A DNA stretch of 64,000 nucleotides from Moniliella sp. 'wahieum'. Lineage: Eukaryota. A program made the position numbers and the translations under genes. The notes under the pieces were generated by a model. It was given only the letters and a program-made list of their open reading frames with translations. It searched no databases and was not told where the DNA came from. Positions 13,168 to 60,298 of this stretch are shown here, in pieces (within the stretch, counting starts at the first letter, position 1; the number at the start of each line of letters is the position of its first letter). The stretch covers positions 1-64,000 of the forward strand of contig RSEE01000019.1 in assembly GCA_003971905.1 (NCBI GenBank), given 5' to 3'.

Positions 13168-13851
13168 CACCTATATACCGTATTACCTCCTCCTTTCTAT
13201 CAGCCTTGAGTGCCGTCGTCATGCCAATAGTAGTATGCAGCGCTCTCTGCCCAGTCTATATACCATTCAGGTATGGCATCATGGAAAACTACAGTGTAGA
13301 AGAAAGGCCAAGTAATAGCCCTGCGGTGACTGATTAGATGGGGTGCGGGCTTATAGGGTGGCAGAACGGGGGCGCAATGGGTCAATGTACTTCGAGGGGG
13401 GGGGCGGGGGCTGCGAGGCACACAAAAGTGCATAGACACAAAATGGCATTTTTTCCAAGCTCAACAGAGCACATCTCGACGGCTTCCGGGTTTGGGTGGT
13501 AAGAACCAAGCAAGCGTGGTTGATGGCGGTGGGACGATCGTGGCCGGGACGCATGCCGCGGGTTTGTGGACTGCGTAATGGAGTCGTGAACGTGGAGCGT
13601 TGGGTGTCGTTTTGCGTTATTAACCTCACTTTGAGAGTTAGCCGCTATTAATTAGCGTCGTGGACCAATTGAGCCAACATAGATATTTGAAGCGGGCGGA
13701 ATGGGCGGAAGCGGCGGGCGCGATCGTGTTGCGCTCCAATTTCCAACCCAACCAAAAATCGCATCTGGGCCGAAGCGACCCGCGACGAATCCGCGACGAA
13801 TCCACGCCGACGTGCCCACCACCACCACCTTGCTCCAGCTGTCTGCCCGCC

Positions 13852-15748
13852 ATGGCGTTCAACTTCAACAGCAGCGCCGCCAAGCCCGCAGGGGAAGCGC
13901 CCAAGTTCTCCTTCGGCGCTCCTGCCACCACTACCGCGCCCGCCGCCAGCGCCCCCGCCGCGCCAGCTACCACCTTCAGCTTTGGTGCCGCACCCGCCAC
14001 CACAACTGCCGCCCCAGCTGCTGGCAGTCTCTTTGGCCAGGCTGCCAAGCCGCCGCTGCCCCTGCTGCCGGAACCGGCCTCTTTGGTCAGGCGGCCAAGC
14101 CTGCGGCCGCGTCTACGACCGCGCCTGCTGCTGGCGCTGGCCTCTTTGGTCAGGCGGCCAAGCCTGCGGCCGCGCCCGCTGCTGGGGCCGGCCTCTTTGG
14201 TCAGGCAGCCGCGCCTGCGGCCGCGCCTACTGCTAGTACGGGCCTCTTTGGGCAGGCAGCCAAGCCCGCTGCTGCCCCGGCTAGCGGGACTGGACTTTTT
14301 GGTCAGGCCGCTACCACCCCAGCGGCAGGTACGACTCCTTCCTTGTTTGGCGCCAAACCTCCTGCCACTACCGCCGCTGCCGGGCAGCGGCGGGTGGGAC
14401 CACGCCCAAACCTGCTGCTACGGTTTGTTTGGATCTACTACGCCTGCCACCTCGGCCGCTCCGGCTCCGGCTCCGGCTGCAGCTGCGGGAACAGGGCTGT
14501 TCAACTTTGGAAGTAAACCGGCCAGCACACCTGCCACGACTGCTGGAACTACCACCCCTGCCCCGGCGACCGAAGCCGGCGTCAAACCCTTGTTTGGCTT
14601 TGGGGCTCCGACTACCTCGGCAGCTCCGGCTACCACGGCCCCGGCCGCAGAGAGCAAACCTGCATTTAACTTTGGTGGACAGACTGCCTCGGCTGCCTCT
14701 ACAGCTCCGGCGGCGGCGGCGACCAAGCCGGCCCTTAGCTTTGGTGCCCCCGCTACCTCTGCGGCTCCTACAACTACAGCTGCGCCTGCCACTACCGCCC
14801 CGGCCTCGACTCCTGCCGCTGGCGGGCTGTTCGCGCCCAAGACTGCGACGGCGACAGCGACAGCGACGCCGGGGACAACGACGACGCCGGCCACTGGAGC
14901 TACTGCACCTGCAGCGACTGCTGGTGCGACGACCGGTGCACCGGCTGCGGCAGGAACGACGACCGGCACCGGTGGAGCGACGACTACGTTGGTCGCGCCA
15001 GCACCTTCGCAGTTGCGTGGGCGCAGCATGGAAGAAATTGTCAACGGGATGAACGCCGAGTTGGAGAGTTCGGTGCGTGCGTTCCGGTCGCAAGCAGCGG
15101 AAGTGGCGTCGCTGGATAGTGTGCTGCGAAAGAGTGGAGCGGCACTGGGTCAGCTCGACACGGAGCTCCACGCTGCGGAGGCGCGGCAGCATGCGCTGGG
15201 CCAGTCGTTGGATGACATTGAGGCGGAACAGGCGGCGTTGTCGGCACTGTTGGACCAGTATGAAGCTACATTGCAGGGCGCCCAAAAGAAGGGACCGTTT
15301 GCTTCGCAAGGCCTGGCCTCGTTGGCAGATGCCGATGCGGGCCTGGCGAATGCCGAGCGGGAACGAGCGTACGTTGCATCTCCATGCTGCGGTCACTGTG
15401 TGATGTGATGGGAACAAGCAAACTAACATGAGATATGCGCAGCTACTCGTTGGCCGAAACGCTCAACCTCCAACTGGACGATGCGGCACGCAACGTAGGT
15501 GGGATCATTGCGCAAGTCAATGCCCTCACCGCCCCGCCACACACGGCATCGACGGGAGCAGGAACGAGCGAGGAGCTGAACGCGGTGGGGGCAGGCGAGG
15601 AAGATGCAGTGGCTCAGATCGCCGCCATCTTAAATGCGCACCTGGGCTCGCTGCGTGGGTCGACGAGACGGCAACGGCACTGCGCGACCGCCTGGCTGCG
15701 CTCCGGAGGGGACACACCGATGCGGCGCAGCCGTCGTGGCGGCGCTGA
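13852..15748 (+). CDS. NSP1: FG nucleoporin Nsp1/Nup62
   Basis: FSFG/GLFG/FNFG repeats, then the Nsp1_C coiled coil PSQLRGRSMEEIVN...ERERAYSLAETLNLQLDD...QIAAILNAHLGSL. Intron 15369-15442. Confidence 0.93.
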
Positions 15749-16285
15749 GCTGAGGCTCAGCCCTGAGGCCAGCCTTGAGGGCGTGTGATGTGTGGCGTGT
15801 CCGCCTGTGGCAACGTCGGGTGTGCTAACGCGGTGCGTCCGGGAGCGTTTGAGCACACGCGGGCATGGCCTGGCAGGGGGACAGAGAGCGGAGGATGTGT
15901 TTCGCACAAGAAGAATTGTACAAGCTTTTGTCCGGCAGCCGTTGCAGCTTGAAGAGGGGTGGAACGGGGGGATGTAAGATGGGAGAGCGCGTGAGGCTCA
16001 CGCCTGAGGGCCTATGGACACCAGACAGCAGCGACAGAGTCCTCTTCTCGTCTGACGAGCAAGGTTAACACGTTAACCGTTAATCGATGTTAATCGTTAG
16101 TATCGGCCATCCCCAGTGATGGAGCCGCGCAGCGCAGCGGGAGTCCCGAGGGAAGAGAAGCGTCGGAGCCCCTCTTGCACAGTGGCGCTGCGCCTGGGAG
16201 CGGCAGTGCCGAACCCTAGCTGGCTACAGCTGGTGTGCAAGGGGGGAGCACAGCGCCGGCAGCTGGGCAGTGTGTTCCATGTGTC

Positions 16286-16294
16286 GTATATAGG
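16286..16294 (+). promoter_or_regulatory. Candidate TATA box upstream of the HD1 gene
   Basis: TATATAGGG about 315 nt upstream of the ATG at 16601, followed by a pyrimidine-rich leader. Confidence 0.35.
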
Positions 16295-16600
16295 GCAGTG
16301 CGACACGGGCCCCGTGCGGCCAGGGGGGATGTGCCTCTCCGGCGCTTCTCTGGTGCCTCTGTTGGGCTACTACTCGGGGGCTACTCAGTACTCAGCTGCC
16401 TACTCAGCTGCTCCTGTGGTGCTCCTCTGCCCTCGCCTGCCTCGCCTGCCCGCCTCCCCCCCCCTCGTCTGCGTCTCCCGTCTTGCTACCACCCCTGCGC
16501 TGCACATTGCCGCCCACTCAGCTGCCCGCCCAACCCATTTCGCCCGTCCTCGCCCGCTCACAACAGAGCGTTCGTCACCCCTCCCCCTCCCCCAGCCACC

Positions 16601-18340
16601 ATGTCCGCCCCACTCCACACCCTTTCAGCCACACCCTTCTCCAGATCCCCGCCGATCGTGCTCCCAACTTGTGCCATCTTCTTTCCCATGCCGATGATGC
16701 CGATGCTGATGCTGAAGCCGATTCCGATCCCGATCCCGAGGCCGATTCCTTTCACCCCTCGTACTCCGTCGGCCCCTTCGATCCTCCTCCCGATCCCGCT
16801 TTGGCGCCGCTCGCCATTTGGGCACGCGCCACCAGCCAGCTCCCGCGCTTGGACAATCAGCGGCGTGACTACTTTGTCGATCTGCTCTCCCGGATCGACA
16901 CTTCCTCTCCCTCGACTGCTGATGAGCCCACTGGTAAGACTAGTACCAATAGTGCCACATACCAGGATGCTTCCGAGTCGCAGGTGTCTTCCGCGATCCT
17001 AGCCCGCGGCTGTGGATGGTGCAACACTTTGATTATCTCTTCCCTACCAATGAGGAGAAGACCCTGATGCGTGAGAGCCATTCCTTCACCCCAACCAACA
17101 GCCTGTCGGAGAAAGCACCGACGTAGTGGCAGACGGTACGGTTCCACAGCTGCTACGACCAAGGCCGATATCCGACGTGCAAACAAGGCATTGATCAGTG
17201 GTTCACCAATTCCCGCCGTCGCCTGTTCTGGACCACCTTTTACCGCACCTACGCCAACGAGGACCGGGCCAAGATGAAACGCATTACAAACCAGTGCTGG
17301 TTGATGCAGGCTCTCATCCCTTGGGGCGTGGAGGGGAGGAAGGGTTGGACCATATCGACCCAAAGAGCATGGACGATCTACGCTCCATCCTGGCCCAGCC
17401 CGTCAATGCCAAACCAAAAGTACTTCGTAAACCGTCCCAGTCCAAGTCGCGCAACCAGCCGCAAGGCAAATCCAAGTCGCGGATCAAAGAGTCCCCCATC
17501 AACCTGCAACAACGCACAGCTAGTGCCGAGACCTGTTTCGCCGACTTTCAAGAGGTGGTACGTAACATGGCCATGTCGGATGTCGAACGTGTCGGTCCCT
17601 GGCTCGATAAAGTCAACCGTCAATCCTGCTTGATATATGGCACGCCTTACGTCGGCCCTGTGTCCAATGTCGAGATGGAATGGAGTTTACGTCGAATGGG
17701 TGCCCACACGTACAGTCCCGAGCTTGACGCCGATTCGTATGTTTTTTTTGTTTTTTGTTTTTTTCCCCTATCCTCTGCCCCGTTCTCCCCATACTGACAT
17801 ATCTTCCATCTCTCTTTCTCTTTCAACAGAGTCCCCCGCTTCTTCACCGGCAACAGCCGCCTCGTCCAAACCAGGCAACAGTACCGGTCACACATCTCAA
17901 CGCGAATCGGAAGCGTTTCCCAGTCCCAAGAATCCTAGCACTGACAACCTTTCCACTTGGCCATATCATTCAAGTGGCGATTCATCCGATCTTAATAGTA
18001 GCTTAAGATATCCCCAGCCGATACAACTGACCGATCTACCGCCCACCGAAACCTCCCAACCATCTAGATTTTTCCCCCCGGCTTTCAATCCGATGGTCAC
18101 GAACCCGTATGGCTTCCGCCAAGCTATGACGAACCCACATCTGAGCATGTCTACTTACGGGTTGAGCCTACCCCCAGAAGAGATTTACAGTAACAATATC
18201 GAATTTCCTACGCTTTGGACGGAATCAGAAACCGTAACGGCAGGCCCCATGCACATGTTCCTTGACCCCTCCGTCCCCCAGCCCTTACTCCCTGTTTTTC
18301 AACTCTCTCTCCTAGGACCTTTGAGCTCCCCCCCCCCCGC
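16601..18340 (+). CDS. bE: HD1-class mating-type homeodomain protein (bEast-like)
   Basis: Manual translation. 17010-17069 gives LWMVQHFDYLFPTNEEKTLM (HD1 helix1/2, W...F.YP..EEK type). 17190-17290 gives IDQWFTNSRRRLFWTTFYRTYANEDRAKMKRI (HD1 WF.N.RRR..W plus the EDR..MK stretch of smut bE). Downstream ERVGPWLDKV resembles the bE constant-region EKVGDW motif. Intron 17737-17829. The 3' end is uncertain. Confidence 0.85.
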
Positions 18341-19361
18341 CCCACAGGCTCCTCTTCGTCTTCTCCCCCGTCTTCTCTCGTCTTCTTTCCTTCTCTCGTC
18401 TTCTCTCGTCTTTTCTTTCGTCATCTCTCGTCCTCCTGATGGTTCAGTTGGCACGACGGTGAAGTACCAACGCCGATTTTTTTTTCACATGGATCTTCCA
18501 CGAGGAAATAGTCAGTTAGCTCATCCTCTCTCTCCTCGCTCCCCTACCCTGCTATCTCTCCCCACAGTCCCCGCTGCTCCTATGTCACGCTCTCTCTTAC
18601 ATATATACGTCGGTCGCGATGGCAGGTTTTTGCACCAGTTTTTCAGCCACACCATTCTATTGCAGTTTCGACGGCCTGATGTGCGTGTCACAGTTCTTAC
18701 CCCCCCCCCCCCTGTCTATCTGATCTCATCTTCCCTCTTTTCCCCCACCGCAAATCCATATACTGCCGTTCGCCCTGCCCTGTTCCGCCTTGCTCTATAC
18801 TCTTCCTGCTGGATCTAGCTCCGTGCTCCGTGTTGTTTCTGTCCTTCTAGTTCTGGCCGGTCCCACAGCATCGACATGTCATGTCCTCGTGCGGTTTTTT
18901 GGGGGGGGGAGGCACACATTATTGCTACCTGGTACGTAGATATTGTACTGTGTTTGTGTTGCTATAATTATAAAAACCCATCCGTGAAGTGACTACTACT
19001 AGTGACTTGTGAGTACCGAAACGACGGTGCAGAGCAACCCAATGTACTGCAAATATACGCTGCCACATTGCAGGCGTCTATATACTTCTTTCTTCTCTTC
19101 GTTGCGTACACACATTACCGGATTCGGGGGACAGCTGTAGAGGATACTACCCCCTTTTCGGCGCACTTGGCACCCCAGAGTACTACCTATTTCAAACCCC
19201 AGATCCGACCGAACCGAGGAGCGGCACCAGCTACAATACTACCTAATACCAACGCAGCTGTACATTGCTCGATCAACTGTGCGGTCCACAGAGGAGCAAA
19301 GGCGGAGAGAGTAAAGCCTATCATTGGATGCCATGTTAACAAGAAGTGCTAACAAGCCATT

Positions 19362-21229
19362 TCATCGATCACCAGGGTGGGGGGGGGGGGGGGGGGGGCA
19401 ATCCCATCTCATTGCAACAGAAGAAAAAATACCGTGGGAAGGAACCGACGACAGAGAGCTCCCTTCCTCCCCATTTGCAGATGTGTATGCGTCACGTTTG
19501 ACTTCCGCCGTCGTAGGCGGCCGGGGATGAAGGAGGGAAGGAATGGGATTGGCAAAGATGGGATTCGCCGCCAACGTACTCACAGGTCCAAATAACTTCT
19601 CCGCCACCACATTCGCTCGTACATTCAGTTCCTTCCACATTCGTACCTCCACATCTTCCCCCCGCCAATCCCTTTCCCATTCCCTGTATCGGTACCGGTA
19701 CCGGTAGCTGTGCTCCTACCGGGCTCCTCCTCCCGCGGCTGCAGCAGCACGTCCCCCGGTACATCCGCCATCGAACCCACATCTTCCTCTTCTTCTTCCT
19801 CCTCTGCCCCCGACACGGCATCTCGCAGTTCAACACGAGCAGAAACATCGGTTGCGGTACACTTGCACTTTCGCGCGCTGATAGGCGTCCCCAGCCCCGA
19901 AGCTAGACTGTGGTGACTGTTGCTCACGCTCCCGGGCGTATGCGCCCGTGCGAGGGTGGCGTATAAGCTCGTGTCTTGCCCACTAGCGGAAGCGTAAGTA
20001 CCGCCCCCAATTAGTACCAGCACAAAGTCAGTAATCCTTACACTTGGTTCTCGGTGCCTACCCCCCCCCCCCCCCCCGCCCGCTTTGCCCCACAGTACCA
20101 GACCAAACAACACAAAACACCAACACCAAACACCAAACCCAACCGAGAGGGAGAAAACGTACCTCGCACGTGTTGAGCAAGGGGACGATGCGCTGCGGCG
20201 GGTCGTCCGGCGGGGGGCATCGGGGTCGGCGCCTACTGAGCCAGAGGATCGCGAACGGTCTGCCTGATCCGATCGGGTAGCCGGGACAATCATACCGGGA
20301 TGCAAGATCGGGCCCTGCTCTTCCTCCTCATCTTCTTTCGATGGCGACGGACTGGGATCGCGTTTCGCGTCGCGCTCGCGCCCTCCAAAGCCCATCGCAG
20401 CAGCTGGCGCAGACGTAGGCGTCGGCATCGACATGCCCATCCCCATGCCCATCCCCGTGCCCATCCCCGTGCCCGTCCCACCGCACGCGACGATCGAACG
20501 TCCGCGTCGTACACTTTGCGCGCCTCCCGGTCCCTTTCCTTTCCCTTTCTCTTTCCCTTTCCGTCCCATCCTCCCGTCCCACTCGTCTGCGTCCCCGACC
20601 GCGACCGACCCGTCGGCGTCCGATCCCGTTCTCGCCGTCCCGATCTTTCTCCTTGTCCTTGTCCTTGTCCTTTGGATTTTCCTTGTCCTTCTCCCGCTCG
20701 GCGGTACGCGCAACACTGCTTCGTGCGCGGGCGCGCGCGGGTGGCAGCATGCGAATGGCAAGGTGACCTGTAGAACTAGGATAAGGGTAACGAGACTGCA
20801 ATTGCTCCATAGCTTGGCGCCACGAAAGTCGCGACCGCACCTAGAGCTTGGACCCGCTCTTGCCCCGTTAAGGAGTCCAGTTCCTCCGCCCCGCTCGGGG
20901 TAGGTAGTGGCAGCCCAAGCGCCGGCGAGGATGGGGCACCATCAGCCCACGAAGCGACTCGGCCACAGGTGTAAATCCCCTCCACGCGCCTGGAAGCACA
21001 GCCTGCGGTTGTGCCTGGGCGGGGGTGTGGGTGTGTAGTGGGTGTGCGTAGGGCGGGCGGCAGAGGCAGCTTGACGCTCGTCGGGCACATCGAGCGCAGT
21101 GGCAAACGCATAGACGGCGCCGCTGTCAGGGAGCACGATGATGGCGGTGTGCGGTGTGCCGGGCTCAGCTTCGCCAGGCGCAGCAACGCTCTTGGCCAGA
21201 ACCGAGGTGAACTTTTTGATGCGCACCAT
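19362..21229 (-). CDS. Roadblock/LAMTOR2 (Ego3-like) domain protein with very long low-complexity insertions
   Basis: Motifs in the roadblock order: MVRIKKFTSVLAK; HTAIIVLPDSGAVYAFA; ERVQALGAVA; WKELNVRANVVAEKLFGPV. Intron 19983-20162 (GTACGT..CTGAC..TAG). Confidence 0.5.
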
Positions 21230-37690: not shown

Positions 37691-40600
37691 TGTTCTGCAA
37701 ACATGAGGGTCTGCCGTCAGTAGCCTGATGGGCCTCACGCAGGGAAGGGGGCGCTGCCGCAAAGGGCACAAAGAAACGAGCAAGGCAAGAGAGCATTGCT
37801 GCTGTGGCACCGTGCGAACGAGCCAAAACAAGCGAACACTCTCAAGAAGGATGCCGACGCACCTTGAGTCTGGTTGGTGGGAATCTAGCCCAGTTCAGCC
37901 GTTCTTCGCCCTCAATTGAGGCGGAACGCTGAAAGAAGGGTAGTAGGGTTGCATATATGCTGCGGCGCAATAATTTGCGCCACGCTTCACATTCATACAC
38001 AGCTTGTAATAACCCTACTGTATTAAAGGATAGTGCTAGGGTTCTGAACGCCCCCCGAAAGAGCAATTGATCGGTGATTTACGTCAGTTGGGCAGATTTG
38101 TTCCGCGCGCTCCCCCTGCTCGCACCATATTGCTTCTCTGTTTTCTGGCTCCTTTCTTGTAGCATGTTTGAAGGCGGGTGGTTTGCCACCATGCCTTGTT
38201 GCATGCCTTGGGGCTGATCCCTTCTCGGCTTCTATGCCGCCAATGAGTCAGACGTAAGGCCACTGAGTGAGAGTGTGCTCATGGTGGTATGAACCTAGAG
38301 TAAACCCGTGCAGTTGCAGCCAATGCCTTGGATCACATTCCCGTTTCACCAGGATCACTCTGCCTACTAATGTACATGGCACTTCGACGCGCTCGCTTCC
38401 TCTCCTCTCACTGTTGGGGCCATTCCATTCATGTACACAACTAAAGAATTCTTGGCAGTTGTACATAACGTAAAACAGCACAAAAGGGGCGCCGAGCTCA
38501 ATACCCGGCTCGCTCATCTACTGGCGAGTGCACCGTTATAATAGCTCGTATCAACTTAACCAGGAAGCCTGTCGTGTGACCCGCTGATCAAGACCCTTTC
38601 GCACCTACCGTTCTCTTCCAAACTGGATGGAGGGGGAGTGCTGAGGCGATTGAGCACCCGGCATGCATGTGAACGAGGGATCATCTGCAATGAGGCGACT
38701 GTGTGACTCCTCCCTGTAAACATCTTGCCGATGCACAAACATCTTGTTGACCGTCTCGAGGCGTGTCAGTACCGTGCCATCGATAATTGCCAAGGGGAAG
38801 AGCGGCTCTTGAGTAGTACGCCCGTGGTTTTTGCTGTTATTATTACCTTCCGTTTTTGCTCCAACAATTGATGCAACTCCTTTTCCCCATGTCCCATACT
38901 ATGCAGTGCTGTCTCTTGGTGTATTACCGTGACCTTTTCCGGTACGCAACTTCAACCCCCCTTCACAGCTGAATCCGTCAAGGTATGCCCCCCCCCCCCC
39001 AGCCCTGATCCTCCAACCGCTCCTGATCCGATCACTTGGCAAATTCCGTGTGCCTGACCCCTGTCCCCCACCCGCCTCGTTTCCACTTCTTTCACCGCGT
39101 CTGGAGTCGCCCCGTGTTGTTGATCTTACTTCTCTGCATCTGATAGCAACCCCGAGCGACGCTAGTCGCCCCATGCCTGTTTGCCTTACCTTTCTAGGCT
39201 GTCCGTGCGGCAGCCGTCTCCCCTGTTCTCCCTGTTCCCGTTCTCCCTCTGTTGCCTTGTTTTCTTTTTAGTCCCTGTCTGTTAGCAGTGGTTCATGGTT
39301 TTCCACCACGGTCCATCTTTGTCCTCCCTTCGTCTTTGCGTCGCCCCTCTTCGCCTGTTCTCCGCTTCACCCCCTGCCCGCTTCTCGCCAATTGATTCAG
39401 TACAGGCAACTCCTCCCGCTCTTAGTCGACTTTCTACTCCCGGCGCAGATCGCCAGCCCTCGTCCTTTGTCCTCAGTACTCTCAGTACTCAGTACCCCTA
39501 GTCCGCGTGAGCCCTCTTCGTGCCACGCCTCGGTCCAGCCCAGTTAGCCGCGTGGGATACTGCCCTTCGCCACGCCGCTCCCCGTCTCAGCCCAGCCTCA
39601 GTTCAGCAGCGTTGGTCCTCCGCTGCCTTCCCCTTCCCTGAGCCCGAAGGCTTCAGACACGCTACTGCCGCCCAAGCCGGTGCTACGCAGCCTCGCCACA
39701 CTTGCAGCCGCCTTGCTATAAGCCGAGAGGCCTCTCCTTGTCCCTAGCTCCGCAGCGGAACCACCAACCAGCCCAAGCGCCTACCGTGAGTCGTCCTTAG
39801 GACCTCCAAGGGATTGTACCCCTTAAACCCCGGGCGAGCCCCTGGCGGCGCCCGCCCCATGACAGGAGACTCGGGCAAAGCTTCTGGTCTCCATCCACTG
39901 TGAGGGTGCGGGGGCATAGACCCCGCCCAGATGAAAACTGGTAGCCTTCTGGGAAATCAGACAAACATGAGAGCATCTGTCCTGAATGGGTTGTCCACCT
40001 AGTTATCCACCCGCAAAAGGATTATTAAGGCATCGGAAGCGTTCAGAACGTGGAGGTCAGTATTATTAGTTGGCCGAGCATACTAGGATAGATGCGCCTG
40101 TGTAAGCAGGTGCCGTGTGCCCCCCCAGCGAACCAGTTGGGTTTTCTGTCAGGCTATGGGATGCCAAAGCCTTATTCCAAAGTAGGACGGACGGGAGGCA
40201 CATATCCAGAATTGTAGGGTGCTTGGGCACCAAATGAATCAGGGGTATGATAAGCTGGACTTGCCCTTAAATATACCTCACTATCTTCTCGCACGGATCG
40301 CAGGTGGACCAGTACACGCCAATGAACTTCTTGCTTTTGCGGAGATACTAGCACTCGAGGGCGAGTCAGACGGGCTTGATTGTTGGCGATTGGTCCGGCA
40401 GCGACCAGACTCCCACATAGAACGTACCGTGCTGCAAATTGGCGCAAGTACTACGATGCCGAACCGTGGAAGATACAAGTGCTTGTGATACTGAACCGTG
40501 TCGCGTTACAGTGTTGGCAGTTGAGCCACCGATGACGAGCAGCTTGTGCGAGGTGAACAGGTGTCTGTGTCCGGAAGTGACTTGAACTGATGAGGCCTGG

Positions 40601-43600
40601 AGTCCGGATGGTCCTTGAGGGTGATGCAATCGCACTGGTGGTGGTGGTGGTCTAAGCCAACCAGCAACGCCTACAGAGGAACAGCAAGCAGCGAGTCGCC
40701 ACCAGGGGCTAAGCTGTGGAACAAGGAAAACAGGAAGAGAAACAACAAAACTCCCAGGCCTGAGGAGGAGCTGAAGGACATTGGCCAAAGCACGAGCCAC
40801 CCGATTGCTCAACATGAACTGTTCTGTCCGTTTTCACTAGGTCACTACATGTTGCATAGTTGCATGGCAATATTGCTTCGCGCGAGCGACCCTGCCCGCA
40901 CGGGCTTCAGCCGCCTCACGTCGCAGGGCAGCACAGCATGCTCTCCAGCCATGCTTCTGTTTTTGGGGGTGATGCAGGATGATCGCTGAAACAGCGGCCC
41001 AGACCTCAATTTGAGGTGTACAGTCATTCACGCTCCGCAAATCTCAGCTCGATCGACCCCTGGGAATCCGACCCTGTGGGGTAGCGACCACACAGCTGCA
41101 TCCCTTTTAGGCGGACTACATGCCCCCGCCCACCACCTTTCCCGCCATCATCTTTCTGTTGAGCCACTACTGACACTCTACAATGCCTCCCTCCCGCACC
41201 GTCAGGCCACCCCACAGTAACCAGCAACGCCGCTCGCCGCCCGAGGGACACACGACGCATCAACCCTGCGCCGGAGCCCGTGGTGGAGACTGCTTTCGAA
41301 GGTGAAGAACCGTCCCCTGAAGAACCACCAGGTGGCACCAGTGGGCTCAACAGCAATTCCGCCGGCGACTCCGAAGGCGGAGAGGGAAAGAGGAGTACGA
41401 AAACCGAGAGTTACGTTGTAGTCCCTCCTCCCCCCCTGGTTCCGTGTTGGTTCGTGAAATGATTATGCGGGGTCAATTGAACCAGCAGACGACAACGATG
41501 AACAGCGAAGAAGTTACGCTGGATCTTGACGCTGACATCTTGTTCCTCCGCACAATGGACTGATGAAGAGAGCTCCGTTAATCAGGGCGAATTTGCTGGC
41601 ATTCCCCCTCTGATCTGGCCCTTTCGCCGGAGGAAGGGTTCCATATTTCACGGATCCGCTCATCGTTACAAGGGCAACAAGCATCACTCAGCGAGGAAAG
41701 CGTATGCGAGATCAAGACTCTTCGGGTGCTCTTTTTGTCAATAACAATGCGAAGCAGGAATCGTTGGCCAGGGGCTTTACTATGTCCAACCCACGCCAGT
41801 ATTTCGAACGCTTGCTGGAGCACAAAACAGGTCAGGGGACCATCAGCTCTCGTTGCACACTCCAGGATGACTTGTACTATACTGACACTTTCTCTATCCA
41901 TGAATGGATCGCCACTAACAGACTAATGGTACAAATGGCTCGCGGTATGGGTCTGTCTGCATCCCGAGAGCAGGATCGGCAACAATAAGGATTTAGGCTT
42001 GGTTTTACGTCCGCAAGCGGCTTGTTCCCCTCGAGGTCTGGAAGAGTGCACTTTTGACCCGGGAAGACAACTCCTGGCCCATATCGGTCGTGTGACAGAC
42101 GGTTTGTCCAAGTTCTGTTGACGGTGTTCCTGAAGCCGACTTGGTCGACCATGACGTTTTTACGCTTACACTGGTTATGGCCTTGCTTAACCCTCTAACC
42201 TAACCCATTGCTTTGGAGTAGAAGGTTAATAAAATGTGGAAATAATGCATACTTGTCGAAGCCTCTGGCACGGCTTTTTCCTGTGTAACGAGGGATGTAG
42301 ACTTAGCATTAAACAGGTGCGAATTTCTCGGATATATAACCCTGGCGCAAACACAAGGTTAAGCTAAGTACTTCTATTATAGCGAGATATGAATAATGGC
42401 CAAGATCCACTACAACTTATGGCCGGCGTGTTTTTATGCCAGTTGTTCCGGGAACTTAGATTCATCCTACAAACCCCGCAGCCATGCAGGTGACCGGAGG
42501 TCTCGTCAATCAGTCAGTACGGCTCCCTATACCCTCCCCCCCATGTCAACGGGTGTCTGACTGACCACATCCACGTTGACTGTACTACCTAGTCTACTGC
42601 ATCAGTTGCACAACATTCTTGCTTGAGTGATGAGGTCCATCGTTCTTCGCTGTGTCAGGGGAGGGGCTCAAAAACGGTTAGCATCGTTGGCTATCCCTCC
42701 GAGCTGGACCGTCCGCTACTGTACCCACAATGCGTATTATGCGCGCTATGGACTTCCTGGGAAGCTTGTGATATCATGGTCGCTGCCAGATCAACACACA
42801 CCTGTTGAGAGCCGTGTTACCAAAGAAGACTGGGGCGCACAGCTTGCTCTCACAACTACCGGGAGCGGCCCAGGCATGGTTACATCTCAGACTGAAGTCA
42901 CTTTCTCCCTGTTTCTTCATTGGTGCCGGTGAGCCTGCTACACTCGGGCGGAAGTGGAGGGGATGCAATCAGGAGGAGAAGGCGCTCCCTGAGCGCAACC
43001 AAAGAGGAGGGACAGCGGCGGCACAAGGCCGATTCTTCACTCAAGAATCTCATTGATCTCGCTTGACTCCTAATTAACCCTGAGACCAGGGTACGCGCCG
43101 ATGCGCGCGGGTAAGGCTTGATGCGGTGGATCTCATAATTAAATAAGGTTTTTAAAAGCAGCGAGATGAGGGGCACCATCATTTCGGTCGGTGAATCCGG
43201 TACAGCCCCCGAACTCAAAAGAGATCCATAGTTGTCTGGAGCCGTTTTTGTACTCGGGGACAGGAACGAGATAGGGGGTGTGCAACAGCGTCTGGCAGTG
43301 GGGTTGATCTTGAACGGGAACCAGGTGGAAACCGAGTCTACACCAGCCTTGGACCGTGAAAGTTCTCCACAGTTTAGATTCAGAGGAACACCGGAGCACT
43401 GAGTGGTTGGCAACCTGGAGCGGCGAAGGTGGCACCTATAAGCCTAGAGAAGGACGAGATGTCGGTATACCGGATGGATTGACGAGGGTGGAGAGGCCAA
43501 CTGATTGCCAAAGATCGGTGGTCAAGAGCCAAGGGATCATGGGGAATTTGTTCCCCCGAGAAGGGGGGAGGAGTTCCTCAAACTCTTGCAGCCCCCCCTA

Positions 43601-46600
43601 AAAACCCACTTCCCCACAACTTGTCAAGGGCTGCGCTGGATCTGAGATGGGCTATCCAAGCTAAAGCCCGCCTGTTCTGCACATGCTGTGTGGCTTAATT
43701 GCGTGCTACACTGGTGACACGCGACCAATGGCACTGCAGCAGCAGTGTGCTTTTCTTTTTTCTCCCTTCCTCTGAAATGGGAGTATAGCTTTTGTGGGAG
43801 CTATGCAATGAACATGATGACTTTACCACCTCCATCTCCAGTTCGCTACGCCATACATCACGTTTTTGCCTCCCAGATAGAGCAATACTTTAGGGATGAA
43901 ACATGACATAATAACTTATCGAGCGTCCTCAACAAGGCGTATATTGGCCAACATCTCCCAGCGTGTCTGTCGGACAGCAGAATTGAATGTGATGTGGTTT
44001 GATGACAGGAGGGGGTCTAGGCCCAGCAGATGAGAAGAAGAAGAGAGACGGATGATGGGGCCCGGCACTGGGCTGGTGCGGCGACATTGGACATAACCGA
44101 ATCTAGATTCTGCGCTAGTCGGGCATCTAAATCATCATCCCGGTCTCACAGGTTCCCCTGGTTTGACCTGTTGAGTGAGACGCCACCTGCGGCCCAGCCC
44201 ATTCCGCCTCCGGTTTATTCCGGAGTAGATCTTCCCGAGACTTCTGCCCCCAGTAATTCATTTCCGTAGTCCACCATCTCCCTCCTCACTGGTAGCAGAC
44301 CGCTGGGCAGATCTCCTCCGACATGACCCGGCTGTGGACACATTTACTGCAGTCTTTTTTTATTTCTTTCTGACGCTTACTACAGGTGTTTTCTCCTTTT
44401 GTGTATACTACCACAATCACTCTACATTATTCTGCCAGAGGCCCCCTCAACCCATTTTATTTTCACCTTGAATAAAAACAAATAGAATCATCTAGCTGTC
44501 GCACAATACATACATTATCCACTCAGCTCGTCTCGGTGTCACCCTGGACAGCGCAGGTGTTGCTGAGGTCCCCTCACTTCAAGTCGATAGACAAAGGTCG
44601 GCGTGGTGCCATTGATGTTGGGGCGATGCCCCAATCACGCCATCCTGCGTGATAGTCATCACCCCTCTCTTTCCGCCCGGAAGCTTCCTCAGCTCCGCGG
44701 TACCCTCGTCTATATAAGGCCCTACCCTTCTCATAGCCTCCTGTACCTCTCTGAGAACCACATCCTCCATTCCACTCCTTCAGCAATTGACCTCAACGAT
44801 ACTGGTGTCTGCCATTGTGATGCTGCGCATGTTGCATCCATTCTCTCCAGGATGGCTCCATCTAGCCCTATGCATAATGGCGGTGACTATGGAACAGGAG
44901 TCCTTACAGTAACATGTCCACAGTGGTACATTACAACAACAGGGCATATACATTAGGGGCATTTTTTCAATATGCTTTGAATCATGGCAGGTATTGATGC
45001 TCTAATGCACTGCCAGTTCGATCGTCGATCAGAGACAGCTTTAATCAGTTCACAGGTTAGAAACGTCTAAACAGACAAAGTGTGGGTGATGACGGACTTG
45101 TTCAAATCAGCTATTAACTGGGGTGAGCGTTCCGCGCACCATAATTTCTGTTTCGGACTGCCAATTGGTGAAGCGCTGAAGTCAAACTTAGGCGCTCAGA
45201 GCTCAGTTGTCTTGCTGGATCGGATGCTACGCAGTCTTTGTGCGTGGCAGAAGACAATTGGGTTGCCTCCATAGATTCCGCTTACGCGTAAACGGAAAGA
45301 AAATGGAAGCAGAGGAGGGAGATGGATGAGGGGGCACATCGCGCTGACCGATTTTGAATTTATTTTGACAACAGATATTCAGAACCCCTGGAAAATTCAT
45401 TGTGGAAGAATATCCCTCCATGAAGATGGAGACATGCTATGTTTATTTGTTGTTGGGGCTACGATGGATGAATCATGACCTATATACAGTCAACATATGG
45501 TATGCTACATGTCCACAGCGAACACATTTACTCCCAGAATTATAATGACCCCAAAGCAATACTCAGACCCAGGATTGTGGCCGCGGGTCTCCTGGGGTTG
45601 GTGTTATGCTGGGACGCTATGGGTACCGATGCTCTTGTTCGCATCCAAGAATTATTTTCCCTTTTGTCTTGACGATGCGAGGATACTATGCAAGAAGAAA
45701 GCAGGCAAAATCCCCATGGTCTGGAAGGAATTAACAAACGAATATCAACGGACATGGTTCACCACTGGGATATCTACTATGTTCATCCGTACCCACAATG
45801 TTATCTAGGGGGTATGTGAACTGAAGACGGCCTCCAGAGGGTCTGTATGTCCCGGTAGGCGGTTTCCCTGTTTCCTCAAGCGGAGTTGGCGGTATCAAGT
45901 AGGACACGCAGGATGAACGGGTCGGTTGAGGTGCAGCGGTTCTTTTCTCAGCGATAGGCTCTGTTAATAATATGATCACGGCATAGGAATGGGCACAAAG
46001 CTCGTTTCGTCGCTCGAATAGCTGTAAGCATAACTAACGACTGAGGGTGGGGGAAATGAATATCCTGGGTGCCTACTTAATCATTACATACAGCATTTTT
46101 CACAACTAACTGATAAACGAGAAACATCTCCGTAGGTTCATCTGAACATATGGAGGGTGCTGACAGAAGCGTACAACGTATAGCACAGCGTGCGATAGAT
46201 GTCACTCTGGTCACAGTGTGGCAGAGTGGTAAGGTACTAGGATATTGCTAGACGTGCCTCAGTTGATCGGTGACGCTTGCCAACCAGGGTGGAAGAGTGG
46301 AACTCGCTGGTAGCCCACCCCCTGTTCTAACGCTATATCTCCTGTCTCCGCTGTCTCCTTCCTTTAGGGTGTTGCATAAATACTCGTTGCTCATCTTTTA
46401 TCTTCTCAGCAAGTCTGAAAGTTGGTTTGTAGCTGATCCGTGAGATCAGGGGTGGGCTCCCAATCGCACGCTAGCACATGCTTTCTGGGCAAATATTGGA
46501 TTCAGCAACTATTTTGACTAACTTCAGTCATACGTGTAATCTTTAGCTGACAACAGTATTACCCTGTCGACCCGATTTGGGAATAAAGACCAACAAAGTA

Positions 46601-48099
46601 AGATGCATAACATTATTTTAGGGTAATGGCTACTGAAACACTAATTTGTCACCGTTTCGCTGACCTTATACCCTTGTCCAATCGATTTATCCCAAGCATC
46701 TCGGTTTTCCACGTTTTTATTATATGTTTACATGGGCCCTCAGCAGTTCAGTAGAACCCCTCTGGGGGACACCTCTCGGCGTATAGCAGATGGCGCTTGT
46801 ATGGCAAGGCTGCGTAGGTAGGATTTTCTTGGTCAGTTATACGCTTCTAAATCTGATATCCGTACTCCGGGTGTGAATAAGGGGCAGCGTAAGAAAATTC
46901 TTCCATGTGACGGGGATCAGTGTAACGGGAACCGGGACTGCATGACACGTCGAGCTCTTAGCGACTGAAACTATGCTGTAGCTGAGAGATCTACTAGGGT
47001 TATGTTGGGTGCCAGCAAGAAGGCACTGGAGAGAACAGCGAGTCAATTACTAAGGGGGGAAAGAGTTGCCTGTACCGTATACGGACAACCAAACTATCAA
47101 GAGAGGATGGAGGGAAACGTAAAATGAACAAAGGGGAGTCGTCACCATAAGGGTTGGCCGTTCCCCACCATTCCTCGTAGGCGGGGAACAATGAAACAAC
47201 CGGTCCAGCTGGGGCCCCAGGTGTTAAGGACAAACAATATAGACAAAAGGGCACAGTCGTCGCCAAGGATTAAAATATGGTCGATGATAGTCGCCGCTTT
47301 GGGCACCTACGGACATGGTACGAGTGCCCCACTATTACCGTGAGACTGGATTGGGGTTGATAGGAGTGAGTGTTGCTAGAATAGGACAAAGGATCGCGCA
47401 GGAAGACCGTAACAGCCTGGACGCCCTCGGGCCTCACAGTTACTTCGAGCAGTTTTGACTCGGCAGTGACGCGCTGCCCGTGGAGCAACGCCCCCGGTTC
47501 ACTCCTGTTGACCTGCTCGTTGCGTGCGACCTTTTCCACTAGCAGTGGGTGAGCGCAACCCGGCGCATAGGAGGCGTTGGAAGAGTTCTGTGACAGGTGA
47601 AAGGTGGAGGGGGAGGCCGCCATAGATCGGGTTCGATCTAACCTAGCGCAGTGAGGCCCGTCTGCTCTAGCCAGGAGGCCGCCCAGATTGAGGGAGGTGC
47701 GATTGGGGTGGCCACATGGTGAGTGCCAATTCACAGGGGGAAAGGGACTATTGTAGAGCGGATACGTAGAATGGTGATCGGGCGGGTCGGCTCGCTACCC
47801 ACTATCGGACTGAATTGGATTTGGGAGTGAGCCCTATCGTTGTAGGTAGAGCAGACGGGCCTTAGCAGAAGAGATCGATCGGATCAGTCCGATTGTACCC
47901 GATGACCATGCAGGATGGCCAACCTGGGGACGGAGTTAGGAAGGGAAAAGGAGAGCGCGTAGGCTCCGTGGGCCCGCCTTCGCGGGTGATACAAGGCCAC
48001 ACCCCCACTACCTGTATACCTGCATTGGCATGCATCTCAAAAGACACGTCCTCTATCTGGATATATATGGGAAGACGATACTCTGAGGAAGGGATCATC

Positions 48100-48978
48100 G
48101 ATCCGTCATCGATCTTGATTCAAGCGACACAGCATGGCAGGATGCAGAATTGGAAATTGGAGCGAGCTTAGTCCTTCGGTGACACATATGCATAGAGCTT
48201 TTGAATTTTCCCAATTTGGTTCTTGAGCTCTTGGCACTCTTCTTCCTCGTCCGGGCCCTGAGGAGGCTCAGGGGGACCGCTGTCCGTCGCCTTGCTACCA
48301 CGAACAGGAGGGTTCGCTTCTTATTCGTCTTGCGGCAGATCAAGTACAACAAAAGTCGGGTCGACTAGCACAGAAGTAAGGGTACTTAAATTCCCACATG
48401 TGGCCAAACGTTTCGAGGCTGACGGTGCTTGCTGACAGACCAAAGAGTTGCTTGAGCCAGGCAGGCTCTTTTGTGATATGTTTTCGAAACCGAGCTTGTC
48501 GAGTGTGCCGACAAAGGATGCAAAGCTGGAGTACTTTTTTTGAAGCCGGTGCGAAGCACCATACTTGTAAATTGATCGTCGTTCTGCATGCAATCAACAG
48601 AGCATCGTAGCACAGGCACCGAAGTCTTTGTTCAGAACCCTCACCCAACAATACAACACATCAGAGTCAAAAAGAAAGAGAGCATTGACGTACAACAATC
48701 AGAAATGAGTCACCCGTAGATGGCCAGCGCACGAGGTGGTTCCACGCACCATCTTCGAGCATGTCAAAGAGCCTGCGGACAACACGAGGGGGTTTGCCCT
48801 GTTGGGACCCTTTCTTCTTTTTCCCATTTTGGCGCTCGTTCCCCGGGTGAGTATGGCCGGGCGGGGAGGATAAAGTACTTGGCTCCGCCTCCAGATTGCC
48901 TGGCGGTTGTGCGTTGGAGGAGGAAGGCTGGTAGTATACTGCAGTGGTCTGCACCGGGGGGAGAGCAGGTGCGCACAT
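48100..48978 (-). pseudogene. Degenerate or highly divergent HSF-type DNA-binding-domain gene (HSF/Skn7-Prr1 family)
   Basis: PPRVVRRLFDMLEDGAWNHLVRWPSTGDSFLIV | intron 48584-48693 | NDDQFTSMVL...SSFASFVGTLDKLGF...MWEFKYPYFCASRPD..YLICRK, then a coiled-coil-like EEEECQELKNQIGKIQK. At least 3 frameshifts. Pseudogene versus assembly error is unresolved. Confidence 0.7.
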
Positions 48979-51960
48979 GAGACACGGGATGGCGGGGCGG
49001 TGGGTGATTGTGATGGTGGTAGGGTGGATGGAGGGAAATCCAGATGCACCTCCCTACTTATACTGTGTGGGAAGGATGCTCTCGTCTCGTGCGGAAGGAA
49101 TGTCTGCCCCCGCTGAGACGCGAGAGGAGAAGCCGAGACTGCCGAACCAATCAATAATCATCGATGATGATCTCCCAGTTGTGCGCTCTCTACTGCTCAC
49201 TTGTTGTCACTGTGTCTATCTACAGTCGTCACTCGCGTCATGGCGACGCGTCACTAGTCACTCCTGGTCTGTTTACGCGGTACGGAAAAGAGCGGGGCCC
49301 TCTGCGGGGCCCGCCGCCTGGGGTTGCGACTTCCGGGTGCAGCAGGACATGGATACTAAACGTTGAACGGGTCTCAATTGCGACTCAAACTTCGCATCGC
49401 GTCATGCAAAAGGTTTTAATATCCGGGAGCAGATGGCAACATTATCTCTGTGTCCGCCCAAAATGGCTCTCAACTACAAACTAGAACAAAGTCTACGCCC
49501 ACTGCAACCCGCGTCCGGGGCTGTGGGAAGAGGCCGTCCAAACTATACCGACAGCTTACCTGCGCACGTAGAGACGATACCATCAGAGAGGTTTTATTCT
49601 TCCTCACAGGCCCCATCACACCACTGCAGCACCATACCCCTGTTGTGTTACTCACATACCCCGTTACTTTCATATCATGCCAACAAAAAAATGGGGAGCA
49701 CACTGTGTGTTGGCACTGTGGATAACCAACGGTTTCACCATCACGGTGCTAATATACTAGCATCGTGGACAATCCCAACTCTTCCCTTCAAAACAGGGCG
49801 AACTAACCCATATAACCAAAGAGACAGAGAAAACGCTCACTGTGTTCACTCTGCGCCACTCTCCTCGTCACCCTCTAGCGTGATTCGATCTAGAGGTATA
49901 TATATGCCTTCATGAAGCGAGTCGAAACAGAGTACACTCACAGATGTGTGTACGCTGAAAGTTTGCCTCAGATCCTATCTGACTGGCTAGTAAACGGGCC
50001 AACACAAGCCCCAACGTTGGCACGTTAGTTTCCTGTGATTCTTACGGCGTATATTCACTGGGCTTTCCCTACTACGAGAAAAGCAATACGCTCGCAAGGT
50101 AAAAGGCCGTTGATGCTTCGAGTGTGCAGTTCGGACACCACAACAGAACCGCCACTGCACAGCGGAAAGGTGTGGGTGCTAAGGCAACTTGTGTACGACT
50201 GCCACGCATGAAGAGTAATATATTGGGGTGTGTCGATGAGGTGACTGGGAACAAAAAGGCGACTATTATAAAAATGAGGAGGGGCGCGAGCTTCAAGAGC
50301 AGGCGCCGGGCTGGGAGGGCCACCTGCGGTGGGGTTTGTAGGGGTACCATCCCTTAGAGGTCCAAAAGTTAGGGCTCACACTAGTATTTACTCGCTGGAG
50401 CCAGTGGTTGGTGCCGATGGGGACCTGGAGACCGTGAGTAACCGCTCAGCGTATAAGAGGCGGCTGCCAGTGTATGAACAAGCCGTGTATGCTCCGGCGA
50501 CTTAGACAGTAGTAACGTGTCTGAAAAGCCACCTTTGGGGCTGATGTACGGGCAGTGTGGCAGCGGGTGACAAACACCGCCAGAGCTGGAACGAAGGACT
50601 GGACTTGGCCTCGACTCGAGGTGGCTAGAAGAGGGATCGCGCGACTTGACTGGGATTGGATTCGACATAGCTGCAGGATGACCCACCGACAGGACGCTGG
50701 AGAGCCGGGAGGTGAGAAACAGAGCTGGGGGACGAGGACGGATATAGCTAGCAGAGACGATTACCGGAAGACGCAATGCTACCTGTACTGGATGAATTGG
50801 CTGGAAACGGGCAAGAAGACTCCCAGTGGCCCTTTTATATAGCCACCGACTTCCACGTGCCCAGGGGACGACTATTGTTGCACGATACATGTGACGCTGG
50901 TGGCCACCCTCGGGGCACCGCTCATGTTTCGAAAAATGGCACGATGGAGCTTGGTTGGGTTTGGGAGCGAGCTCTATTGTGGGCTTGGGTAGAGCAAAGG
51001 GGAACCATAGACTGTAGAGTAGATGAGATCGGATCGCATCCAACGCTACCCATAAAACATCACACTCTCCCTCCCAAGGCGTGTCCTGGCACCTTGCAGG
51101 GGGTAGTTTCTGCATTATACTCAGTCCACTCCAACTAGGAGGCGATGGCATTATCGTGTTGGTCATTCAACGAACCTGGGGTCGGCGGGGTGTTGAGCCA
51201 CCGTGGGTGTTGGCTTGTGTGTTTTGGCCAACGTCCTTTAGTCATCCCTGGACTCAGGGCTAGGAGTTCCTTTGTTTTCTCGCTCCTGTGTTTTCTTTGT
51301 TCCGCAGCCTAGCGCCTGGCAGCGGCTGGCTGCTTGAGTTTCTCTGTAGATGTCTGGCTGGATTAGACCACCACGGCCGCTACCACCAGAGTGCCATTGC
51401 ATAACCCTCGAGAGGACATCAGGGCTCCAGGTTTCATCACGGGTTCCTATTCCCGGTTCTGGCGGGAGTCAACGCCCGCTGGCGCCCCTGCGAGCCCGAT
51501 GCTTGTTGGGGTGAGGAAGGCTAAGAGAGCGCGAGGCTCAGCCAGGCTCGGCGTCCCGACTTTTGCAGATGTGGTGGATTGTAACCAGATTGGACAGGTA
51601 CCAGCGGCGCACTCGTCATAAGCGCACTATAACCCACGGCAGTCCCGACACGCAATGATGGTGGTACCAAGGCTGCCCATAGCATGGTTGGCCGCTGGAA
51701 AGCACGCACACGACTTGGATGTGAGGAGTCTGGTTGATGTCACGGATGATTGGTGGACAGTCAATATTCAATTTCAACTTGACGCTCAGCTGCAACGTTC
51801 AACAACCGTCGACGTGCGAGGGCCGTGTGCTGACATAAGCCGGATGCGTCGGTCCGTCGGCGTGCCCCGAAGCGACGGCCGTCGCGGTCGCCATCACCCC
51901 CATCGCCTCGGCCGCCGCCTCCCCGTCCTTCCCCGCCCCCTTGGTCGTGGCGCCCCTCCC

Positions 51961-59047: not shown

Positions 59048-60298
59048 TCACCTCACGCTCACGCTCACGCTCGCCACGCCACTCCCTCGGCTCCCGCAGC
59101 ACCGCAACCGTGTACGTTCGGCCTCGCCTTCGCCCGGCGGCGCCCTCGATACCCGTGTCGGGTCCCGAGAAGCGTTCCATGTACTGCCATCCGGCTTGGA
59201 GCGGCAGCTCATCAGGATGCTCTCGATGCGCGCGCCGGGCGTCTGCAGTCCAAACTTGGTCCCGCGGTCGTACACGAGGTTGAACTCGACGTAGCGGCCG
59301 AGTCGGATCTGTTGCCAGGCGAGGTCGTGGTCGGTGTAGGAGTAGCTTTGCGTTTTTCGACAATGGGTACGTAGGCAGGGACAAAAGCGTCGCCAAGGCT
59401 GCGCACCGTAGCAAACAAGCTCTCCAGATCATGTTTTTGGCTCGACACGGCCGTTTGGGGCGCATGCTTCGTACCATCAAAGAGCGGGATGTGAGCGGGT
59501 TCCAACGGTCGGGCAGAGCAAGGTCATCAAAAAAGATGCCCCCGACACCGCGGTTTTCGTTGCGATGAGGGATCCAAAAGTACTTATCGCACCACCGTTT
59601 CCAGGCCGGGTAAAACCCCGTGTCGTGCTTGTCGGCGGCCTGCTTGAGCGTCTGGTGGAAATGAGTGGCATCTTCCTCGTTGAGGTACATGGGCGTCAAG
59701 TCAGCGCCCCCGCCAAACCACCACGCCACAGGCTCCGTCTTGCCATCGTCGCCCTTCTTGGCCTGTTCAAACCTAGGGTTGGCCGATCCATCCTTGAGAG
59801 TGGGCGGGTGGGTAAGCTCAAAGTAGCGGTAATTCAAGTGGGTGGTAGGGCAAAACGGGTTTTTGGGGTGGATCACCATGCTCAGTCCAGCGGCATAAAA
59901 CGGCAAGCCAGTGATCTCGGCTGCGGAGCCATCGATTTTGTACCCCGTCTTTTCGACCAAATTGGAATGGTTGGCGCTCATCTGCCGAATGGCAGCAGGC
60001 GGCAGGTGACCATGGACAATGGAGATGTTGACGCCAGCCTTGTTGAACGTCTCGCCACCCTGGATAACGCAGGAGATCCCTTCGCCACCTTCCTTGCGGG
60101 TCCACTGGTCCACAATGAACTTCTCGCTGGGTTCGGTCGCTTGAAGCGCCTGGACGATCCGGTACTGGAGATCCTTAATGTAGGTCTCCATACGCAACCG
60201 CATGGGCTTGGACGGATCGTCCAGTACCTTGAGATCCAGCTTGGAGACATCGGGCAGGTTGGCCTTGGAGGATTTCCAAGCGTCGGACGAAGCGACAT
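59048..60298 (-). CDS. HEM13: Oxygen-dependent coproporphyrinogen III oxidase
   Basis: [97 protein letters not shown]. Confidence 0.97.

Follow-up and report, generated by a model that had tools for sequence, protein, structure and literature searches.

The first 64,000 nucleotides of contig RSEE01000019.1 from Moniliella sp. 'wahieum' (assembly GCA_003971905.1; this whole stretch is called the window below) raise the question whether the plus strand at 16601-18340 carries a homeodomain (HD) mating-type gene that no open reading frame (ORF) displays in one piece. In basidiomycetes, mating compatibility is determined by pairs of HD1 and HD2 genes, which in smut fungi also govern the switch to the infectious filament. 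An HD1 gene found in a poorly known lineage is a first step to mating-type typing there. The two genes of a pair are normally closely linked and divergently transcribed, HD1 being the partner of the TALE type, according to the sections of PMC2916851 and PMC8305134 used here. From manual translation, the initial annotation had read the locus as a bE-like HD1 gene, as the HD (b) mating-type gene of this fungus and as a gene that automated annotation would miss. The present analysis places the gene in the HD1 family of bE proteins as known from Ustilaginomycotina, and it is genuine and probably intact. That it is the HD1 mating-type gene of the fungus, in a locus without the HD2 partner bW, is the favoured but tentative reading and falls a little short of being probable.

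A homeodomain divided between separate pieces

The three peptides on which the initial annotation was built are all present in a six-frame translation of the window. LWMVQHFDYLFPTNEEKTLM is encoded at 17010-17069 in the frame of ORF 16953-17126, IDQWFTNSRRRLFWTTFYRTYANEDRAKMKRI spans 17190-17285 (not 17290, as first given) in the same frame beyond an in-frame TAG at 17124-17126, and ERVGPWLDKV is found at 17585-17614 in another frame, that of ORF 17195-17797. The whole homeodomain lies in no single ORF of the window, just as had been claimed: its halves are in separate pieces, and each alone remains below the cut-off of the Pfam family Homeobox_KN (PF05920), the first with an expectation value (E) of 0.036 over positions 1-24 of the 40-position profile and the second with E 0.0072 over positions 27-40. 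When the corrected reading was scored as one (16953-17340, with the TAG read as X), the two stretches, again profile positions 1-24 and 27-40, together reached 26.8 bits and E 4.6e-6, above the curated cut-off of 24. The match covers the three-residue extension between helices 1 and 2 that marks the TALE class. The pattern W[FY]x[NK]x[RK] occurs only once in the six frames of the 64 kb. A TALE-class homeodomain is encoded at this locus, and it is more than a chance resemblance because the pattern occurs this once and the family-specific blocks described below are clear outliers.

Fit to the bE family

The family comparison was based on supplementary Fig. S1 of PMC7766764, in which 18 bE (HD1) proteins from 16 Ustilaginomycotina genomes are aligned, and was made by column patterns and by eye against these bE rows only. 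An earlier set of patterns, loosened with the window in view, was dropped in favour of columns taken strictly from the 18 rows, and each site in the six frames of the window was scored against them. In the block formed by helix 3 and the next 18 residues (17199-17276), 15 of 16 constrained columns agree, the next best site reaching 8. The pattern behind helix 3 is S-x-W-[TSKQ]-x-[FIWM]-x-[RK]-x-[YF] followed by [ACG]-x-x-[DE]-[KR]-x-x-M, and the sole miss is an L for the S. Five of the 16 columns are generic TALE residues; the other 11 lie outside the homeodomain proper, and 10 of them agree. The C-terminal block at 17534-17614, with the pattern [CFM]-x3-[WFY]-x2-[MIV]-[IV]-x8-E-[KR]-V-G-D-W-x3-[LVI], fits all 12 of its constrained columns, against 9 for the next best site in the six frames. 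Because two blocks outside the generic homeodomain fit the bE columns this closely, the gene is classified as a bE-family HD1 member of the TALE class. The initial claim of a bE-like gene is borne out by these counts, and the motifs WF.N.RRR..W, EDR..MK and E.VG.W, named in the initial annotation, correspond to conserved columns of the published alignment (18 rows, PMC7766764).

The order of the blocks is collinear with the family, running from helices 1-2 through a variable loop to helix 3 with SGWT..R.Y/A..DK..M and then to C...W...ERVGDW. By eye, the closest row in the block after helix 3 is that of Violaceomyces palustris, and the closest rows in the C-terminal block are those of Tilletiaria, Acaromyces and Pseudomicrostroma; the Acaromyces ingoldii row has WFTN and ERVGPW in common with the window, and the Tilletiaria anomala row has AETC...ERVG. 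Set beside the Ustilaginomycotina bE proteins (Ustilago maydis UMAG_00577 and the other rows of the figure), the gene is alike in its TALE homeodomain with a variable loop between helices 2 and 3, and has in common with them WF.N.RRR-S.WT.F.R.Y-A..DK..M (15/16), C...W..I...ERVGDW...V (12/12) and an unconserved C-terminus rich in serine, threonine and proline, the last being the state of the bE C-termini in Fig. S1 of PMC7766764. It differs from them in the lack of a divergent bW, in the sequence L-F-P, in the L that replaces an invariant S after RRR, in an acidic, proline-rich N-terminus and in a stop-bearing loop that needs splicing.

Among solved structures, the homeodomains of PKNOX1, MEIS1/2 and TGIF are the best matches, both halves being matched weakly (E 0.12-1.3). 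Helices 1-2 and helix 3 align with those of MEIS, PKNOX and TGIF, including the three extra TALE residues. Together with the solitary position of the gene, which is how such factors occur, these matches could point to an ordinary non-mating TALE transcription factor of the MEIS/TGIF/CUP9-like kind that resembles bE in its homeodomain only. However, the structure matches are weak (E 0.12 or worse) and none extends beyond the homeodomain, whereas 10 of the 11 positions after helix 3 and the 12 positions of the C-terminal block are bE columns that lie outside it. Homeodomains of the MEIS/TGIF type have an N-terminal arm with a run of basic residues, and by eye no basic run precedes helix 1 here. 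An ordinary TALE factor is therefore regarded as very improbable.

Wider searches were also made with parts of the gene. Word-indexed protein searches of 17342-17737 and 17166-17333 against longer proteins returned no match, and a search of 17342-17737 in the ESM Atlas returned nothing usable. A HMMER search of 17342-17737 against 1.84 billion representatives gave four matches at E 0.001 or better, which were rejected as spurious: the proteins are internally repetitive (ANATO, Tox-SGS or no family) and are matched in three to eight stretches. In a metagenome scan, two loci (L001 and L002) matched query residues 29-54 with 50% identity; L001 carries a seemingly bacterial enoyl-ACP-reductase-like ORF and was dismissed as a chance match.

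Gene parts and frame steps

The coding sense of the gene crosses three reading frames: it begins in that of the putative start ATG at 16601, continues in ORF 16294-17067 and then in ORF 16953-17126, and moves on to ORF 17195-17797. The parts of the gene are collected in Table 1. ORF 16294-17067, which encodes the stretch just before the homeodomain, has no upstream ATG in its frame, so that the start must sit in another frame or exon. The N-terminal region reads ...DDADADAEADSDPDPEADS...LAIWARATSQLPRLDNQRRDYFVDLLSRI...SESQVSSAILAR and no Pfam family matched it.

Table 1. Parts of the bE-like gene, with positions in the window and the observations on which each part is based
Feature	Position	Strand	Basis
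Putative start codon	16601..16603	+	ATG in the context CCACCATGTC; plausible
N-terminal region, ~135 codons	16604..17006	+	Frame of the ATG first, then frame of ORF 16294-17067
Frame step inside helix 1	16993..17009	+	AILAR is followed by RLWMVQHF in a different frame at GCCCGCGG, which leaves no space for an intron
TALE helices 1-2, RLWMVQHFDYLFPTNEEKTLM	17007..17069	+	Homeobox_KN 1-24; gapless alignment to helices 1-2 of PKNOX1 and MEIS
Loop between helix 2 and helix 3, in-frame TAG 17124-17126	17070..17189	+	Read from the sequence; holds a putative intron
Helix 3 and following bE-type block, IDQWFTNSRRRLFWTTFYRTYANEDRAKM	17190..17276	+	Homeobox_KN 27-40; 15/16 bE columns at 17199-17276
Second frame step, within an exon, in the G-run-rich stretch CCCTTGGGGCGTGGAGGGGAGGAAGGG	17292..17368	+	ORF 17127-17633 to ORF 17195-17797
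Conserved C-terminal bE block, CFADFQEVVRNMAMSDVERVGPWLDKV	17534..17614	+	12/12 bE columns
Predicted intron, 93 nt	17737..17829	+	GTATGT donor, CTGAC branch site at 17794-17798, T-rich tract and CAG acceptor, all read from the sequence
Ser/Thr/Pro-rich C-terminal region, ESPASSPATAASSKPGNST...	17830..18340	+	ORF 17634-18818; the open frame continues to 18818

The stretch of the loop that contains the TAG is presumably removed by splicing, and two candidate introns would keep the frame. The first, 17071-17163 (93 nt, GTGAGA..AAG), leaves 15 residues from the conserved K to the conserved W, and the second, 17105-17149 (45 nt, GTCGGA..CAG), leaves 31. The same spacing in the 18 bE rows, as counted on Fig. 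S1 of PMC7766764, is about 23 to 44 residues. Splicing at 17071-17163 would give a loop of canonical TALE length, yet one shorter than in all 18 bE rows, and this intron is a candidate only. Further downstream, splicing of the intron at 17737-17829 joins a frame that stops at 17936-17938, and the long ORF is reached only if there is a further single-base error, which may lie, for example, in the C5 run at 17833-17837. The end of the gene at 18340 is arbitrary because the frame beyond this intron is not fixed. Long homopolymer runs are present in the gene-poor stretch 3′ of the gene (C10 at 18331-18340, C13 at 18701-18713 and G20 at 19379-19398).

The in-frame TAG at 17124-17126, a minimum of three frame steps within some 1.75 kb and the lack of a partner gene are what might be seen in a decaying relic of a former b locus, in which bW has been lost and bE is being broken by frameshifts and a nonsense codon. 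For five of the species surveyed in PMC7766764, bE or bW proteins are reported as truncated. Yet the density of steps is equal or higher in the CPOX gene of the window (59.1-60.2 kb; 59097-60227, minus strand), where three frame changes fall within about 1.1 kb by comparison with the relative P0007 and leave no room for an intron, and at least two frame changes, likewise leaving no space for introns, lie in the middle of conserved stretches of the Sec24 gene (61.2-63.5 kb; 61230-63492, minus strand). Since CPOX (heme synthesis) and Sec24 (export from the endoplasmic reticulum) are conserved and expected to be intact, and since the steps in them are of the same kind, those in the bE-like gene look like assembly error rather than decay. 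We infer single-base assembly errors, mostly at short homopolymers. In addition, the stretch with the TAG is flanked by usable splice signals, and the conserved blocks are without degradation. A decaying relic is thus considered quite improbable. The expectation that automated annotation misses the gene holds in so far as the gene is hidden, but what hides it is mainly assembly error plus one or two introns and not unusual biology. This assembly seems to carry such errors frequently, and they will hide many of its genes from annotation that is based on ORFs. A frame change is also needed in the Nsp1-type gene at 13850-15750 (plus strand), between its repeat part and its end.

Neighbouring genes, possible mating-type role and lineage

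In section 3.3 of PMC7766764 a divergent HD2 neighbour is likewise described for b/HD loci, and that survey of 16 Ustilaginomycotina genomes handles bW and bE as a single locus. Several observations weigh against the reading of the present gene as a mating-type gene, the first of them on its neighbourhood. The immediate neighbour upstream, at about 13.85-15.75 kb on the plus strand, is the FG-repeat nucleoporin Nsp1, with GLFGQAAKPAA repeats and an Nsp1_C match at E 4.1e-20; it is transcribed from the same strand as the gene, which leaves no divergently transcribed partner. No bW or HD2 partner was found within 16.6 kb upstream or 45.7 kb downstream. Five bW motifs (ILExAF, NITxAEK, RQVxIW, QNRR and WFQN), drawn from the bW alignment in the supplementary file of PMC7766764, where the bW (HD2) homeodomains are very strongly conserved, form no cluster in the six frames of the window. 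Among 417 ORF pieces scanned with Pfam (a set from which some 233 low-complexity ORFs of at least 60 residues and all shorter ORFs were left out), there was neither a second homeodomain nor an STE3-type receptor nor a DEAD-box helicase; in most of the Ustilaginomycotina species of PMC7766764 such a helicase is found close to the b locus.

Other observations concern the gene itself. Scanned in fragments, its pieces gave only Homeobox_KN and one chance match to DUF4454 (E 0.13) in Pfam, and a family specific for Ustilago b proteins (Ustilago_mating) was not among the matches. Helices 1-2 (17007-17069) fit 8 of the 11 columns of the bE pattern R-x-W-F-L-x-H-I-x-x-P-[YF]-P-x4-K-x-x-L, a score tied with three chance sites; V, F and L stand for [LIR], [LIM] and P at the columns that are missed. 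The window has L-F-P at a place where P-[YF]-P is found in 17 of the 18 bE rows and P-F-V in that of Ceraceosorus. The N-terminal stretch of 135 codons, acidic and rich in proline, could not be matched by eye with the same region of the 18 rows, and the in-frame TAG of the loop is spliced out only by inference. Of the initial claim of a b mating-type gene of this fungus, the bE-like HD1 character stands. The divergent bW neighbour that goes with such a gene was looked for, and with Nsp1 on the same strand and no cluster of bW motifs the claim is not established, because the described neighbour is absent.

Pheromone genes and other elements were also sought in the window. Small ORFs with a CAAX end numbered one, against 0.4 expected by chance, which is no more than chance. 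The pheromone response element of Ustilago, ACAAAGGGA, has 18 matches in the window with up to one mismatch, against 12.9 expected, and none of them lies at 15.7-16.6 kb. Rfam and tRNA scans of the window found nothing.

If the gene nevertheless has the mating-type role tentatively given to it above, then, by analogy with known HD1 proteins, the N-terminal part of its product would pair with a bW-type HD2 protein contributed by another mating type, and the heterodimer would be the transcription factor that switches on post-mating development. In bE proteins the N-terminal recognition domain is hypervariable, with many alleles, and dimerises with non-self HD2 only. As no bW adjoins the gene, its HD2 partner would have to come from another place in the genome or be confined to the opposite mating type, like SXI1/SXI2 in Cryptococcus and Trichosporonales.

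A bE without bW would indicate either duplication of a mating-type (MAT) gene, as in one of the 16 Ustilaginomycotina genomes, or the loss of one HD gene per allele. In the case of duplication, the gene would be an extra copy of bE outside the true b locus, with a functional bE-bW pair elsewhere and a mating role that is modified or lacking. A precedent is Meira miltonrushii, for which the alignment of PMC7766764 holds the extra rows Meimi_2 and Meimi_3; the other 15 of the 16 genomes have a single bE row. This species has two additional bE genes, and a duplicate of bE and one of the pheromone receptor are described at both MAT a and MAT b (PMC7766764). The present gene is like the Meira copies in being a bE-family gene outside a single standard bE-bW pair. 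Duplication would also suit the lack of an adjoining bW, the divergence of helices 1-2, which is greater than in any row (8/11 columns, with L-F-P for P-[YF]-P), and an N-terminus that cannot be aligned to the family. However, Meira miltonrushii is alone among the 16 genomes of PMC7766764 in having such copies, and the description of its duplicates includes receptor genes, whereas no STE3-type receptor was found in the window. The very good preservation of the two family blocks (15/16 and 12/12) argues for selection on the protein. An extra copy is accordingly seen as possible, though rather doubtful. In the row Meimi_2 itself, a later stretch resembles helix 3 of HD2 proteins (…QVTVWFQNRRSR), which suggests a fused or mis-modelled HD1-HD2 gene in Meira miltonrushii.

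In the case of loss, a basidiomycete with a bE of the Ustilaginomycotina type would have a MAT allele that kept HD1 only and lost bW, and HD2 would be present only in the opposite mating type. MAT alleles with a single HD gene are described in PMC6730849 for Cryptococcus neoformans, 24 Trichosporonales species and Wallemia, and a Microbotryum is said there to have lost HD1 in one of its mating types; in alleles of the SXI1 type the HD2 partner is supplied by the other mating type. The present gene is like SXI1 of Cryptococcus neoformans MAT-alpha and Trichosporonales, and like the SXI1-only locus of Wallemia, in being an HD1 without HD2 (PMC6730849), a likeness of gene arrangement. In loci of the SXI1 type the HD gene and the pheromone/receptor genes form one fused locus (at a distance of about 55 kb in Trichosporonales), whereas in the window no receptor was found 16.6 kb upstream or 45.7 kb downstream; a linkage over about 55 kb or more would lie beyond this downstream reach. 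A fused MAT locus, in which the solitary HD gene would be linked to an STE3 receptor and to pheromone genes, was thus not found within the window. No HD1-only allele is described for the 16 Ustilaginomycotina genomes in the sections of PMC7766764 used here, and we regard such an allele as unlikely in the present fungus. If it were true, it would represent a further independent origin of complementary HD loss in the style of Cryptococcus and Trichosporonales. The loss of one HD gene per allele usually goes with a change from tetrapolar to bipolar mating.

The lineage of the fungus was approached with CPOX (59516-60191, minus strand). Its nearest relatives are ten unnamed proteins with 64-76% identity, and named relatives have at most 57% in a search that covered proteins of 123-394 residues and may miss longer named ones. 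A single-gene tree of 40 rows, rooted at the midpoint, was made from the window, 15 unnamed and 24 named proteins, 81 of the 120 listed proteins being left out. In this tree the window and the ten unnamed proteins form a group (100/99) in which the window branches first. On its side of the tree stand Atractiella, Wallemia, the Agaricomycetes and a species of Tremellales (98/94), with the rows of ascomycetes and aphids set apart. The tree fits a basidiomycete lineage without named representatives in the sample, with which the Ustilaginomycotina-type bE agrees, and the lineage seems to be poorly covered by named records. Three other genes were considered for placement. RPS14, compared with solved structures, was rejected as too conserved for this purpose. 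The best match of Mak16 among solved structures is 'Protein mak16' (a name in the style of S. pombe) with 158 bits, against 139 for the weakest chain, which gives a hint only. A piece of SLA1 matched only SH3 clusters in the ESM Atlas, most commonly from Zoopagomycota or Ascomycota, and has no value for placement.

Besides Nsp1, the genes recognised in the window are those of a poly(A)-binding protein (RRM and MLLE), Mak16, API5, an MFS transporter, a LETM1-like protein, SLA1, RPS14, a TPR protein, CPOX and Sec24. The content of guanine and cytosine (GC) is 0.49-0.69 in 2-kb windows, and the stretch is GC-rich eukaryotic DNA. At 38000-51500 the GC content falls to 0.49-0.56 and the scanned ORFs of at least 60 residues have no Pfam match; this part may consist of repeat relics, lineage-specific genes or genes too broken by frame errors. 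Between 18800 and 21800, in the 3 kb or so that follow the homeodomain gene, the only open frames on both strands are GC-rich ones of low complexity that have no Pfam match, among them 19625-20941 on the minus strand with 438 amino acids.

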